A DNA stretch of 64,000 bases, taken from assembly GCA_000165345.1 (NCBI GenBank), contig CM000432.1, positions 160,001 through 224,000 on the forward strand, in the 5' to 3' direction. The notes beneath the pieces are model-generated. The model did not search any database and was not told the origin of the DNA. It worked only from the letters and a program-made list of their open reading frames with translations. A program made the position numbers and the translations under genes. Shown here piece after piece: positions 46,724 through 51,043 of this stretch. Every line of letters starts with the position of its first letter. The first letter of the stretch is position 1.

Positions 46724-49700
46724 ATGGCAGAATTAATAATGGGAGTAGATTTTGATAATAAAAAAGAGTATGTTAAAGAATATAATTTAGGAAAAAATGA
46801 GGATATTGTTGAGTTAATTCGTATTTTGAGAATACAAGAAGAATCAAGAAAATCATTGGAAGAAGAAATACAGGTAATAGTATCAAATAATGAAAATTTG
46901 AAACAGGAATTAATTTCTAGTAATGAAATGGTAAATTATTGGAAAGATCAATATGAAATTTGTAATGAATCATTAAAGATAGTAAATGAAGAATTTGAAC
47001 AATTGAAAGCTTATGATGAGAATATGAATACATTTAATAAAACATTTAAGAGTATGGAATGCAAAAAATGTGGATATGAATGGAAGAAGATAAATGTTGA
47101 AAATGATTATAGAGATTTAAATTCAAAAATAACAGATAATGATTTAGAGAATTTTTTAGATATAACAAATATTCTAGTTTCTTCATTATATATGAATGAG
47201 ATGGAAGACTTAACAATAGAAGAAAATAATGATATAATTTTAAATGAAGATAATATAATAAAAGATCAGGAATTTGAGAAGCTTAAGATTGAGAATGAGG
47301 AACTTAAGATACTTTTAAAGAAGAAGGAAGGAATAATAATGGATTTACAGAATGAATTAGGTCAAATAAAGAGTAGATTAATGGTAGAAAAGAGTTTACC
47401 AAATATATTTAAAATAGTGAATAATGATTTATTGGATGATAAAACATCAGAGGATGATGATACTCCAGAATCTAGTTATTTTAAAGTTACATTAGATGAT
47501 AAAGAATTAATGAATGATAAGAATAAAAAGAATTATTTGGATCAATTGAAATCTATTAATAAGAAAAGAAAGATAGCATTTTGTTTAGATAATGATTTGG
47601 ATACTAAGGAATTAAAATTATCAGAAAGTTTGGAAGATTTGAATGGTTTAAATAATATTAATAATGAATTATTAGAACAAGTTAATGTCATGAATAAGAT
47701 TTCAGATATTGAGAATATTGAAACAAATATAGATGTTAATGAAAAGAGTGGTAAATATGAAGAGGTGAATAGTAATGAAATCGGTAAATTAAGAGTTGAA
47801 TCAGAATTAGTAGAGGGTTTGAGTTGGGAAGATGATGTTTGGGAGGAGGAGGAAGAAGAAGAAGAAGAGGAAGAAGAGGAAGAAGAAGAAGAAGGAGAAG
47901 AGGAAAGATTAAGAAAAGAGATGGAAAAAGAAAGACTCAGAAAAGAGGAGGAAGAGAGAATCAGAATAGAAGAAGAGAAGGAAAGACTCAGGATAGAAGA
48001 AGAAGAGAGAATTAGAATAGAAGAAGAGGAGAGACTTAGAAAAGAGGAGGAAGATTCGAGTGTTAGAAGAGAAAAATTGGTTACTAATATTATGAATGAG
48101 AATGATTTGAATGAATTTATTAGAGGAGAGGGATTGAAAAGTAGTGAAATGATAAATGAAGTGGAGGGATCAAAAAAGAATATAATAGGCTTAAAGTCAT
48201 TTTTGGATGATTTTGTGAGCCATATTTCAGGATCTATTAATGATGATATTAATGAAAAGGAAGAGAATAAGGATGATAATAGTTTCAAGGACATTTTTGA
48301 TTCCTATAATAATAACAATAATAATAATAATAATAATAGTAATTCAAATAACATTCCATCTTTTACAGGATTTGTCTCAAATATCAAAAGCTTCTTTAAT
48401 GATGAAAGGAGTAATCCTGTTGTTGATTGGAATCTTAAGAAAATTCAAGATAACTTAATAGATTCAAAGAATAATTCTAATAACTCAATGATTTGTGAAC
48501 AAATTAAAATGAATAATGAAAGTAATGGTATGATTAATTCAAATTGGGATAGCAACGATTGGGGATTCGATGAGGATTTTGAAGAAGAGGAAACAGAAAA
48601 AGAAGAAGGGAAAGAAGAAGCGAGAAATGAGGAGGAGGAAAGAAAAGAGGAGGAGAAGGTAGATGATAATTGGGGTGATGACTTTTTCAGTGATGAAAGT
48701 GATGGTAATAATGATAAAGGTTATATAGAAGATGAATCTGAGTTGAGAAAGAGTAATGATTTAGTTATAATAAATAGTTTAAACTTTAGCGAATTGTCAT
48801 CAGAGGAAAAAGTTCAAGATCAAACAAAAAAAGTAGAGAATTCAAAAAATGAATTTAATAATTGGGATAATATTGATGATTGGAGTGACGAATTTGGGAG
48901 TTTTGATAAGGAGGAAGAGAGAATTAGAATAGAAGAAGAGGAAGAAAGGCTTAGAAAAGAGGAGGAAGAAGAGAGGATTAGAAAAGAAGAGGAAGAGAGA
49001 ATCAGAAAAGAGGAGGAAGAGAGACTTAGAATAGAAGAAGAGGAGAGGATCAGAAAAGAGGAGGAGAGAATAAGAAAAGAGGAGGAAGAGAGACTTAGAA
49101 AAGAAGAGGAGAGAATCAGAAAAGAAGAGGAGGAGAGACTTAGAAGAGAAGAGGAGGAGAGACTCAGAAAGGAGGAGGAAGAAAGACTTAGAAAAGAAGA
49201 GGAGAGACTCAGAAAAGAGGAGGAAGAAGAGAGGATTAGAAAAGAAGAGGAAGAGAGAATCAGAAAAGAGGAGGAAGAGAGACTTAGAAAAGAAGAGGAG
49301 AGACTCAGAAAAGAGGAGGAAGAAGAGAGGATTAGAAAAGAAGAGGAAGAAAGACTTAGAAAAGAAGAGGAAGAGAGACTTAGAAAAGAGGAGGAAGAGA
49401 GACTTAGAAAAGAAGAGGAAGAGGAGAGGATTAGAAAAGAGGAAGAGGAGAGACTTAGAAGAGAAGAGGAAGAGAGACTCAGAAAAGAGGAGGAAGAGAG
49501 AATCAGAAAAGAGGAGGAAGAAAGACTTAGAAAAGAAGAGGAAGAAGAGAGGATTAGAATAGAGGAGGAAGAAAGACTTAGAAAAGAAGAGGAAGAAAGA
49601 CTTAGAATAGAAGAAGAGGAGAGGATTAGAAAAGAAGAGGAAGAAGAAAGGCTTAGAAGAGAAGAGGAAGAGGAGAGGATTAGAAAAGAAGAAGAGGAGA

Positions 49701-51043
49701 GACTTAGAAAAGAAGAGGAGGAGAGACTCAGAAAGGAGGAGGAAGAGAGAATCAGAAAAGAAGAAGAGAGGATTAGAAAAGAAGAGGAGGAGAGACTCAG
49801 AAAAGAGGAGGAAGAGAGACTTAGAATAGAAGAAGAGGAGAGGATCAGAAAAGAGGAGGAGAGAATAAGAAAAGAAGAAGAGAGGATTAGAAAAGAGGAG
49901 GAAGAAGAAAGACTTAGAAAAGAAGAGGAAGAGAGACTTAGAATAGAAGAAGAGGAGAGGATTAGAAAAGAGGAGGAAGAAGAAAGGCTTAGAAGAGAAG
50001 AGGAAGAGGAGAGGATTAGAAAAGAAGAAGAGGAGAGACTTAGAAGAGAAGAGGAGGAGAGACTCAGAAAGGAGGAGGAAGAAAGACTTAGAAAAGAAGA
50101 GGAAGAAAGACTTAGAATAGAAGAAGAGGAGAGACTTAGAAGAGAAGAGGAAGAGAGAATCAGAAAAGAAGAAGAGAGGATTAGAAAAGAAGAAAAAAAA
50201 CCTATAATAAAAGATATAATAGAAAATAATAATTTTGAAATTGAGAAAAATATTGATTCAAGTTGGGAAGATGAATGGGATTTCGATGATGATTTTAATA
50301 ATGATTTCGATAACAATAATAATAGTAATAATATAAATAATATTAATAATAACAATAACAATGCCGAAATACAAAATAATGAATCAGAAGATGAATGGGA
50401 ATATAATAATAGAGATAAATTTACTGATAATTCAATAAATGAATTAAAAGAAATTAATGATAATAGTTGGGAAGATGAATGGGATTTTGAAGAAGATTTA
50501 GATAATGACAATAATAATAATAATAATAATAATAATAATAATAACTCCACTAATAATATTAATAATGATTCAGCTTTTATTCAAAACTTTAGCTGGGATG
50601 ATGATAAATGGTCATCAAATGATGAAATTAATATTAATGATAATGATAATAATAATGATAATAATAATCATCAAATTATTTCTTCAAATTTTAATATTAA
50701 TAATGAAACAATTGATCAAAATAATCAAAAATTAAATGAACAATTTATTTCTTTATCATCACCAAATAATGCTAATTCTAATAATTCTAATGCTATTTCT
50801 AATAATATTAATATTAATAATAATAATCCTCTAAGTTTTGTTGAATGGAAAGATGAAGATGATTTCTGGAGTGAAAGTGAAATAAATAGTGATAACCTAT
50901 CTAGCAAAGATTCTTTTGAATTTAAAAATGATAATAATAATAATAATAATATTAATATTAATAATATTAATGGTAATAATGATGAAAAAAGTAATTCCAA
51001 CTCTAATTGGAATGATTTAAATTGGTCTGATGATGAATTTTAA
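46724..51043 (+). CDS. Giant glutamate/arginine-rich repeat protein (1439 aa) with poly-Asn tracts
   Basis: It is an uninterrupted ORF with an ATG start. About 430 aa of its core are degenerate (EEEE[E]R[LI]R[KRI]) repeats, and a shorter block of the same repeat lies at aa ~370-440. Long N-rich and D/E-rich flanks surround the core. The minus-strand ORFs 47542..48294 and 48820..50550 (S/L-rich) are mirror images of this low-complexity DNA. Confidence 0.55.
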   Translation: MAELIMGVDFDNKKEYVKEYNLGKNEDIVELIRILRIQEESRKSLEEEIQVIVSNNENLKQELISSNEMVNYWKDQYEICNESLKIVNEEFEQLKAYDENMNTFNKTFKSMECKKCGYEWKKINVENDYRDLNSKITDNDLENFLDITNILVSSLYMNEMEDLTIEENNDIILNEDNIIKDQEFEKLKIENEELKILLKKKEGIIMDLQNELGQIKSRLMVEKSLPNIFKIVNNDLLDDKTSEDDDTPESSYFKVTLDDKELMNDKNKKNYLDQLKSINKKRKIAFCLDNDLDTKELKLSESLEDLNGLNNINNELLEQVNVMNKISDIENIETNIDVNEKSGKYEEVNSNEIGKLRVESELVEGLSWEDDVWEEEEEEEEEEEEEEEEEGEEERLRKEMEKERLRKEEEERIRIEEEKERLRIEEEERIRIEEEERLRKEEEDSSVRREKLVTNIMNENDLNEFIRGEGLKSSEMINEVEGSKKNIIGLKSFLDDFVSHISGSINDDINEKEENKDDNSFKDIFDSYNNNNNNNNNNSNSNNIPSFTGFVSNIKSFFNDERSNPVVDWNLKKIQDNLIDSKNNSNNSMICEQIKMNNESNGMINSNWDSNDWGFDEDFEEEETEKEEGKEEARNEEEERKEEEKVDDNWGDDFFSDESDGNNDKGYIEDESELRKSNDLVIINSLNFSELSSEEKVQDQTKKVENSKNEFNNWDNIDDWSDEFGSFDKEEERIRIEEEEERLRKEEEEERIRKEEEERIRKEEEERLRIEEEERIRKEEERIRKEEEERLRKEEERIRKEEEERLRREEEERLRKEEEERLRKEEERLRKEEEEERIRKEEEERIRKEEEERLRKEEERLRKEEEEERIRKEEEERLRKEEEERLRKEEEERLRKEEEEERIRKEEEERLRREEEERLRKEEEERIRKEEEERLRKEEEEERIRIEEEERLRKEEEERLRIEEEERIRKEEEEERLRREEEEERIRKEEEERLRKEEEERLRKEEEERIRKEEERIRKEEEERLRKEEEERLRIEEEERIRKEEERIRKEEERIRKEEEEERLRKEEEERLRIEEEERIRKEEEEERLRREEEEERIRKEEEERLRREEEERLRKEEEERLRKEEEERLRIEEEERLRREEEERIRKEEERIRKEEKKPIIKDIIENNNFEIEKNIDSSWEDEWDFDDDFNNDFDNNNNSNNINNINNNNNNAEIQNNESEDEWEYNNRDKFTDNSINELKEINDNSWEDEWDFEEDLDNDNNNNNNNNNNNNSTNNINNDSAFIQNFSWDDDKWSSNDEININDNDNNNDNNNHQIISSNFNINNETIDQNNQKLNEQFISLSSPNNANSNNSNAISNNININNNNPLSFVEWKDEDDFWSESEINSDNLSSKDSFEFKNDNNNNNNININNINGNNDEKSNSNSNWNDLNWSDDEF
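48911..50200 (+). repeat. Coding tandem repeat array (~24-27 nt period; GAAGAGGAAGAGAGACTTAGAAAA-like units) encoding (EEEER[LI]RK)n
   Basis: Near-identical units such as gaagaggaagagagacttagaaaa, gaggaggaagagagaatcagaaaa and gaagaagaggagaggattagaaaa repeat about 50 times without interruption. A shorter related block lies at 47832..48060. Confidence 0.85.

Follow-up and report, generated by a model that had tools for sequence, protein, structure and literature searches.

Golgin-type tethers, such as GMAP-210, combine an elongated helical spacer with an amphipathic helix resembling a curvature sensor and an end that binds vesicles or their coats, and a similar layout is proposed for the protein described here, which is encoded by a gene of Cryptosporidium parvum lying within a stretch of 64,000 nucleotides (contig CM000432.1 of the assembly GCA_000165345.1, positions 160,001 to 224,000; hereinafter the window, to which all coordinates refer). 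The middle of this protein is occupied by a long tandem array of Glu/Arg-rich units similar to the ER/K type of single alpha-helices (SAHs), which is represented by myosins VI and X, caldesmon, INCENP, the KER domain of CAF-1 and the designed AEEEKKK repeat. Natural SAHs usually comprise 40-200 residues, their persistence length being about 15 nm (PMC5347031). As for short docking motifs, the class LIG_deltaCOP1_diTrp_1 of the ELM database includes Trp motifs amid acidic residues that bind delta-COP by its mu-homology domain (MHD) (PMC7145657); the lasso of Dsl1 is a case of such an acidic Trp ligand of delta-COP (PMC4868844), and in Gcs1 a C-terminal Trp motif is joined with an ALPS (amphipathic lipid packing sensor) motif (PMC6737914). 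Here we establish the anatomy of the C. parvum protein, the prediction of a helix for its array, selection acting on the charge pattern of the latter, the conservation of short motifs around it and the turnover of the spacer between lineages. The explanation that we regard as the best overall, giving it even credence, is an exchangeable charged-helix spacer in a scaffold with conserved flanks.

Conserved flanks and turnover of the proposed spacer

The target gene (46724..51043, plus strand) is real, intact and specific to Cryptosporidium. It consists of a single exon running from ATG to TAA and encodes 1439 amino acids (aa), in the same open reading frame (ORF) that an earlier annotation of the window, made without database searches (the sequence-only reading), had reported. 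The main array (48911..50188, plus strand; aa 730-1155) comprises 53 units, 426 aa in total, with the unit pattern E(3-5)-R-[LI]-R-[KIR], and upstream of it there is a short ER/K array (47840..48052, plus strand; aa 373-443), in which a run of 17 Glu residues and a single Gly are followed by about six ER/K units.

HMMER searches of 1.84 billion representative proteins recovered orthologues from Cryptosporidium alone, all other matches being to the repeat only; word-index searches were flooded by low-complexity candidates and missed known orthologues. The orthologues of C. xiaoi (1503 aa), C. ryanae (1539 aa) and C. bovis (1518 aa) are full-length, and those of C. ubiquitum (708 aa), C. felis (267 aa) and C. 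canis (651, 713 and 268 aa) are cut. In GenBank the orthologues bear the name "low complexity protein with large Glu repeat", which indicates that the repeat is already known to annotators.

The slot of the main array is filled differently in different lineages. C. canis has units of the EEEEERRRI type at the same junction, and in C. bovis, C. xiaoi and C. ryanae the ER/K array is absent, its slot being occupied by about seven unrelated S/E/D/K-rich repeats of 26 aa, which contain 21-39% G/P/S/T/N and have SAH scores of 0.01-0.08. The short array is missing in C. ubiquitum and, in two C. canis isolates, comprises 149-163 aa, i.e., is about three times longer than in C. parvum. A long acidic repeat block is nevertheless present in the slot of the main array in every species. 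Judging from these comparisons, it is a long, acidic, repetitive spacer that has been kept across the genus, and neither a specific sequence nor even a helix; the main array is found in some lineages only and does not form the conserved core of the protein. The view of the sequence-only reading that the protein is built around the array has to be abandoned in the face of its replacement in the C. bovis clade, and that reading overlooked the actual core, which is formed by the helices at the N-terminus, by the amphipathic ones and by the acidic di-Trp motifs, all of them conserved.

The N-terminal part of this core (46796..47392, plus strand; aa 25-223) consists of a long helix, a loop and a leucine-zipper-like helix, and its alignment among six species contains 57 invariant columns. 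AlphaFold2 (AF2) predicts helices at residues 25-110, 138-163 and 170-223, with a predicted local distance difference test score (pLDDT) of about 90 in the helix cores. A profile of this region gave weak matches to coiled coils only (such as geminin and synthetic zippers), and structure searches found no specific fold match for it; the second long helix is similar to dimeric leucine zippers, and the helix-CxxC-helix region probably dimerizes. The CxxC motif (47060..47071, plus strand; C113 and C116) is invariant in the alignment, as is C80, and is located in the loop between two long helices. In zinc hooks of the Rad50 type, the tip of a hairpin formed by an antiparallel coiled coil bears a CxxC, and zinc is shared between two chains. 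The layout of our protein, with an invariant CxxC between two long helices, calls such hooks to mind, though the surrounding loop (residues 111-138) is predicted by AF2 with low confidence, the packing of a hairpin was not established and structure searches gave no match, and the zinc-hook-like role of this CxxC is only an idea. Further downstream, the conserved basic cluster KKRK (47561..47572, plus strand; aa 280-283), which resembles a nuclear localisation signal (NLS), has the counterparts KKRR, RKRR or RKRK in all orthologues, as seen for C. felis, C. canis, C. xiaoi and C. ryanae; it could be either an NLS or a polybasic membrane patch.

Two amphipathic helices are located between the arrays. 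The first one, LKSFLDDFVSHISGSI (48191..48238, plus strand), is nearly invariant in the alignment of the genus, with the conserved block LxSFLDDFVSHISGS; it has a hydrophobic moment of 0.58 and four charged residues, and is helical in the AF2 model. It is followed by a short motif, FKDIFDSY (48284..48307, plus strand), also conserved in the alignment, and by the second helix, SFTGFVSNIKSFFND (48359..48403, plus strand), whose polar face of Ser, Thr, Gly and Asn is moderately ALPS-like. The conserved block of the latter is SFTGFVSNIKSFFN[DE], with the invariant pattern F-T-G-x-V-S-N-I-x-x-F-F-N. The segment of aa 543-560 that covers this helix has a hydrophobic moment of 0.45, zero net charge, two charged residues and 28% S/T/G; examples of ALPS sequences contain about 50% S/T/G and no charges.

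The third conserved element is a set of acidic di-Trp motifs with the consensus W-[ED]-[DN]-x(0-3)-[DE]-W-[SNGD]. Eight such motifs are present in C. parvum, their first Trp residues being at aa 368, 608, 714, 1181, 1249, 1291, 1375 and 1429. Motif 1, SWEDDVWEE (47822..47848, plus strand), corresponds to WEDDNW in C. ubiquitum and WGDSNW in C. canis. Motif 2, NWDSNDWGFDEDF (48542..48580, plus strand), is followed by an acidic Trp/Phe motif, NWGDDFFSDE (48668..48697, plus strand), which is conserved in C. ubiquitum, and motif 3, NWDNIDDWSDEFGSF (48860..48904, plus strand), directly adjoins the main array, the same junction being found in C. canis and C. ubiquitum. Motifs 4-8 are scattered over the Asn/Asp-rich C-terminal tail (50189..51040, plus strand), which is predicted to be disordered (AF2 pLDDT below 50), and the last of them, NWNDLNWSDDEF, closes the protein immediately before the stop codon. 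An example of a peptide that may be considered as a candidate docking motif for coat domains is SWEDEWDFDDDF.

Seven W-x(2-5)-W pairs are observed in the protein against 1.6 expected, and 14 matches to W-x(1-6)-[WF], eight of which are the acidic di-Trp motifs, against 6.5 expected, neither count being reached in any of 2000 shuffles. The latter pattern is the one that was scored here for the ELM class LIG_deltaCOP1_diTrp_1. The strict acidic di-Trp pattern was found eight times in the target protein, and the 17 other ORFs of the window lack it altogether. In the six species the motifs are positionally conserved, including the C-terminal W-x4-W, and form islands in divergent disordered sequence; such island-like conservation is also seen for the Trp residues of the tail when it is aligned with those of C. 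bovis, C. xiaoi and C. ryanae. With a pLDDT below 50 around them, the motifs are thus placed at accessible, conserved and disordered locations. Apparently, this conserved set has not been described before, and it seems to be a more interesting property of the protein than the array. Other readings of these short motifs were tried and ruled out: an FFAT-like nature of DDFFSDE, as C. xiaoi and C. ryanae do not share the FF pair, and LC3-interacting/Atg8-interacting (LIR/AIM) or kinesin-light-chain W-acidic motifs, as on inspection neither the -2 position nor the spacing agrees with them.

The main array and its predicted helix

Of the 53 units of the main array, 33 have 8 residues, 11 have 9 and 9 have 7, which corresponds to periods of 21, 24 and 27 nt in 1.28 kb of DNA. 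Tandem Repeats Finder describes the array as having a period of 24, 53.1 copies, 78% matches and a score of 1352, far above chance. The about 50 units claimed by the sequence-only reading are therefore real, and its period of 24-27 nt has to be extended to include the one of 21 nt. That reading correctly pointed to a shorter copy of the repeat about 1 kb upstream in the same ORF (the start of the short array lies about 1.07 kb ahead of the main one), as well as to poly-Asn/Asp tracts at the flanks: the protein as a whole contains 13% Asn, 7% Asp and 1.4% Gln, with poly-Asn runs at aa 529-538, 1208-1213, 1263-1274 and 1404-1409.

As DNA, the 53 units are diverse and represent 30 distinct sequences; the longest exact repeat inside the array is 79 nt, and one block of 237 nt is present twice with 91% identity. 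Pairwise comparison of the 33 eight-residue units revealed 1182 synonymous and 452 non-synonymous codon differences. All of the latter affect either the L/I of position 6 or the K/I/R of position 8, without any at the four Glu and two Arg positions. As the codon differences at the E/R positions are exclusively synonymous, the charge pattern is under selection. The units are old enough for silent sites to have drifted while the charge pattern has been retained, which argues for selection at the peptide level and against an assembly artefact. The reading frame across the array is intact, and the C-terminal tail downstream of it aligns in frame with the full-length orthologues up to the stop codon.

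We analyzed the main array using the SAH criteria of Wolny et al. 2017 (PMC5347031). It contains 214 Glu, 112 Arg, 40 Lys, 30 Leu and 30 Ile residues, so that 366 of 426 residues (86%) are E, R or K, which dominate it as in SAHs, and has a net charge of -62. Its score of i/i+3 and i/i+4 salt bridges is 0.68, compared with 0.82 for the designed SAH repeat AEEEKKK and 0.05 for GCN4 and likewise for the N-terminal coiled coil of the target protein itself. The Leu/Ile residues follow each other at a spacing of 8 (27 times), 9 (10 times) or 7 (9 times). Because of these shifts the only hydrophobic residue of each unit wanders through all heptad positions and forms no hydrophobic seam, and neither a heptad nor a hendecad register is present. 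AF2, run for aa 470-1260 with single-sequence input, predicts residues 729-1153 to be helical with a pLDDT of 70-84, two breaks in the model being fold-backs, and the flanks to be disordered (pLDDT below 50). A phmmer search against PDB sequences matched the SAH region of myosin VI and an ER/K segment of a Legionella effector.

By the above criteria the main array is a sequence of the SAH type and, as modelled, in all likelihood forms one helix of great length, rich in Glu and Arg, in agreement with the sequence-only reading, which had predicted a single charged helix from the Glu/Arg spacing. Its predicted contour length, at 0.15 nm per residue, is about 64 nm, or roughly four persistence lengths. 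Like the ER/K SAHs listed above, the main array is strongly dominated by E/R/K, has dense opposite-charge pairs at i/i+3 and i/i+4, is expected to form an uninterrupted helix and connects two functional regions. Unlike them, it is 426 residues long, Arg-rich, strongly net-negative, composed of near-perfect tandem 8-mers and not conserved among orthologues. Taken by its sequence, it may be regarded as an unusually long addition to the ER/K class inside a genus-specific scaffold protein. As to the other comparison made in the sequence-only reading, that with trichohyalin, the long, periodic, Glu/Arg-rich and predicted helical repeats are indeed shared; however, the target protein has no match to S100/EF-hand domains in Pfam, is nearly Gln-free and belongs to an unrelated lineage, so the likeness is compositional only.

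Similar arrays were also seen elsewhere. A metagenomic contig (Ga0209639_1000641, JGI 3300027566; L007, 6001-10248) encodes an unrelated protein of 1415 aa with an array of about 350 aa consisting of EEEERLRK/EEERIRK units (period 24, 45 copies). The source of this contig is a very compact ciliated eukaryote, and the neighbouring genes encode B9-C2, GCP, CK2-beta and Pecanex proteins. Matches to the ER/K array were found in fish Rab11-FIP1 and in a protein of Monocercomonoides as well. The occurrence of the identical 8-mer in unrelated proteins looks like convergent evolution.

The spacer-plus-docking-motif model and its alternatives

Since the array is replaced by other repeats in C. canis and in the C. 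bovis clade, and the short array varies, we suppose that the main array would act as a long, acidic, semi-flexible spacer rather than as a sequence-specific domain. The N-terminal helix-CxxC-helix region would then be a dimeric anchor, and the Trp motifs may serve as multivalent docking sites for a partner, which would make the protein a tether or scaffold binding a vesicle coat, either COPI or another one. That the main array is a spacer projecting multivalent Trp docking motifs is, by its sequence features, a proposal towards which we lean slightly; that the partner is specifically COPI is a doubtful analogy.

This analogy is as follows. Like the ligands of delta-COP (the Dsl1 lasso, Gcs1/ArfGAP1), the target protein contains pairs of aromatic residues 3-6 positions apart, in an acidic disordered context and in multiple copies. 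One copy is located at the extreme C-terminus, as in Gcs1, and amphipathic helices co-occur with the motifs, as in ArfGAP1/Gcs1. Unlike in Gcs1 and Dsl1, neither an ArfGAP nor a CATCHR domain was found in the target protein by the Pfam search, and unlike in those delta-COP ligands that have WxW or WxxF, the spacing is typically W-x4-W, the binding of COPI being predicted here from sequence likeness. From the golgins, with their dimeric coiled coils, the protein differs in its predicted charged single helix, and it has neither GRAB nor GRIP domains, nor any detectable homology to them.

Several points weigh against the model of a spacer with docking motifs. Literature and supplementary-file searches found no experimental or localisation data for the protein. 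Acidic Trp motifs operate in other systems as well (kinesin light chain, AP-2 appendages, acidic activation domains, histone chaperones), and because of these the assignment to COPI comes from resemblance alone. The amphipathic helices, with 28% S/T/G and 2-4 charged residues, appear only moderately ALPS-like, and the conserved NLS-like KKRK would fit a nuclear protein. As for the helix, the repeats of the C. bovis clade are not SAH-like, so a rigid helix is no conserved requirement; with its 426 residues the main array exceeds the usual SAH range of 40-200 more than twofold; and it is rich in Arg (R/(R+K) = 0.74, R:K = 2.8:1). Arg-rich designs, AEEERRR and AEEEKRR, aggregated or oligomerized and gave no monomeric SAHs (PMC5347031). 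These designs, however, were net neutral, in contrast to the net charge of -62 of the main array.

In its most specific form, the model would make the protein a Cryptosporidium-specific tether or coat organiser, in which a dimeric anchor and curvature-sensing helices are combined with a helix of about 64 nm and a di-Trp cluster capturing COPI or another coat; so detailed a scheme we consider rather unlikely. The spacer in it would be freely exchangeable: the C. parvum clade would have an ER/K helix in this place, and the C. bovis clade an acidic, disordered repeat.

The turnover of the spacer may also be explained without any function of the array. Neutral low-complexity expansion by replication slippage in a disordered protein, the function of which lies wholly elsewhere, would agree with the presence of different repeat families in the same slot depending on the species, with the varying lengths of the arrays and with the independent origin of similar ER/K arrays in unrelated proteins. 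It is rather improbable, however, since none of the 452 non-synonymous differences fall on E/R positions in spite of the 1182 synonymous ones, and every species retains a long acidic repeat block in the slot.

Another explanation starts from the same Arg-richness that was mentioned above as a difficulty. With an R/(R+K) of 0.74, one Leu or Ile per unit and an N-terminal coiled coil that would pair two arrays, and considering the aggregation or oligomerization of Arg-rich designed repeats (PMC5347031), the helices might self-associate, and the protein would then be a fibrous or condensate-forming structural component, trichohyalin-like in its behaviour. This is improbable: the net charge of -62 should oppose such association, there is no heptad or hendecad register, no S100 domain was found, the protein is not Gln-rich, and conservation of the array does not extend to the C. 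bovis clade.

To the same extent we doubt that the target is a nuclear, chromatin-associated acidic protein, whose Trp/Phe motifs contact histones or are activation-domain-like and whose helix is a spacer as in CAF-1 p150. The KER domain of CAF-1 is indeed an SAH, with an acidic domain after it (PMC10335832), and the conserved KKRK cluster would agree with this reading. So would the surroundings of the gene: ASF1 is transcribed divergently from it, with an E2F-like GC island in their shared intergenic region, topoisomerase II adjoins it, and genes of NAP and of a TAF1-like bromodomain protein are situated nearby. Yet neither CAF1A nor any other chromatin domain of Pfam was found, even at E <= 5; the array is net negative (-62), unlike the DNA-binding KER helix, which is net positive; gene neighbourhood is weak evidence in eukaryotes; and amphipathic helices with an S/T/G face suit membranes better.

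It is very improbable that the protein is the Cryptosporidium orthologue of the centrosomal CEP120. Neither Cep120 nor C2 domains of Pfam were found in the whole protein (E <= 0.01) or in its segments (E <= 5). Structures of CEP120 C2 domains are present in the PDB, and a search against PDB sequences gave three hits at E <= 0.01, none of them to CEP120. In favour of this orthology, cgd4_770, one of the two genes to which the target may correspond by its position (cgd4_770 or cgd4_780), was listed as a BLAST hit of CEP120 with a value of e-13 by Suvorova et al. 2015 (PMC4348508); however, a hit of this strength to an array with 86% of charged residues is what would be expected from compositional matching and, if cgd4_770 is the target, is probably an artefact. 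A secreted or surface repeat antigen, similar to the Glu-rich antigens of Plasmodium, is equally far from probable: a charged, fast-evolving tandem repeat in a parasite protein would suit it, but the N-terminus, MAELIMGVDFDNKKEY, lacks a hydrophobic signal peptide, transmembrane segments are not seen, and the N-terminal domain is a conserved coiled coil.

The locus, its annotation and the significance of the family

The window is a eukaryotic, AT-rich segment almost without introns, and was assigned to chromosome 4 of C. parvum, since its ORF at 60314-62125, encoding a UDPGP-family protein of 603 aa, agrees with the published UAP cgd4_810 both in its family and in being 603 aa long. By position, the target gene is either cgd4_770 or cgd4_780. 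An identical protein of 1439 aa is encoded in three C. parvum assemblies. Over 10.3 kb the window has no difference from CP029783.1 (GCA_031892065.1), and a single one from CP044419.1 (GCA_015245375.1, IOWA-ATCC), a T/C single-nucleotide polymorphism at 51055, i.e., outside the ORF, 12 nt beyond the stop codon. The array of the window is thus not collapsed relative to the two other assemblies.

In related species the gene is a place where assemblies fail. The contig of C. canis ends within the main array, that of C. ubiquitum 58 nt beyond the annotated stop, at the start of the main array, and that of C. felis farther upstream in the same gene, ahead of the first array. The C-terminal halves of the cut orthologues are presumably located on other contigs or missing, and the orthologue models are partial in several Cryptosporidium genomes because the short-read contigs end inside the gene. 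The assembly hotspot anticipated by the sequence-only reading is borne out in this way, as short-read assemblies of three sister species break in the gene, two of them at or in the main array. Its other expectation, instability of the copy number, agrees with the differences between species and between C. canis isolates (163 versus 149 aa in the first array, with the caveat that these are short-read data) and disagrees with the identity of the three C. parvum assemblies and with the diversified DNA units. Strain-length polymorphism is plausible, and in view of this identity the array is only a candidate typing marker.

Two large antisense ORFs, of 576 aa over the main array (48820..50550, minus strand) and of 250 aa over the short one (47542..48294, minus strand), are mechanical by-products and not genes. 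Since the main array consists of 89% purines on the plus strand, two of the three antisense frames are free of stop codons, and their products are S/L/F-rich low-complexity sequences. No significant Pfam match was found for these ORFs; the one of 250 aa has a sub-threshold match to DUF6007 (E = 0.0052, 17 bits against a cut-off of 26.7). In C. xiaoi an analogous antisense ORF extends over its different repeats and shows no similarity to the ORF of 576 aa (E = 11). Purine bias, lack of significant Pfam matches and lack of conservation all agree with the earlier opinion that the minus-strand ORFs are artefacts of the repeat, and in genome annotation the two should not be called.

The neighbouring genes of the window encode a Kazal-domain protein, ASF1 (transcribed divergently), topoisomerase II, a Yip1-family protein and UAP, and the order ASF1-target-topoisomerase II is also kept in C. 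xiaoi. The clearest GC island of the 917-bp intergenic region between ASF1 and the target gene, TTTGGTGTTTGGGCGGGCTTCCCCC (46236-46262), resembles an E2F site. E2F-like motifs mark replication genes in C. parvum, and this island could provide co-regulation of ASF1 and the repeat gene. On the other side, in the intergenic region upstream of topoisomerase II, there is a palindrome, TGCATGCATGCA (51308-51319), which we take to resemble the apicomplexan promoter element GCATGC. Topoisomerase II itself (51840-57233, 1797 aa) carries a poly-Asn/acidic insertion of about 115 aa inside its ATPase region and a long C-terminal tail rich in Ser, Asp, Glu and Lys, so low-complexity insertions are not limited to the target gene. 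Farther away, the window contains a TAF1-like protein with DUF3591 and a bromodomain (12147-18044), whose gene segment is locally GC-richer (0.36-0.40 against about 0.28), and the pyruvate:NADP+ oxidoreductase fusion (PFOR with a flavodoxin/FAD/NAD reductase; 26505-32309) typical of Cryptosporidium.

Regardless of the partner of the Trp motifs, the family provides a clean case of an exchangeable long repeat spacer in which short Trp motifs may carry the conserved function. A natural ER/K helix of 426 residues, Arg-rich and net-negative, would probe the limits of SAH stability. If the protein is indeed a tether or coat organiser, its spacer would rank with the longest natural ones of the SAH type so far reported, and the protein itself would be a lineage-specific stand-in for the missing coat receptor of the Dsl1-lasso type. 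In any case, it represents a genus-restricted candidate scaffold of membrane traffic in a parasite whose endomembrane machinery is strongly reduced.

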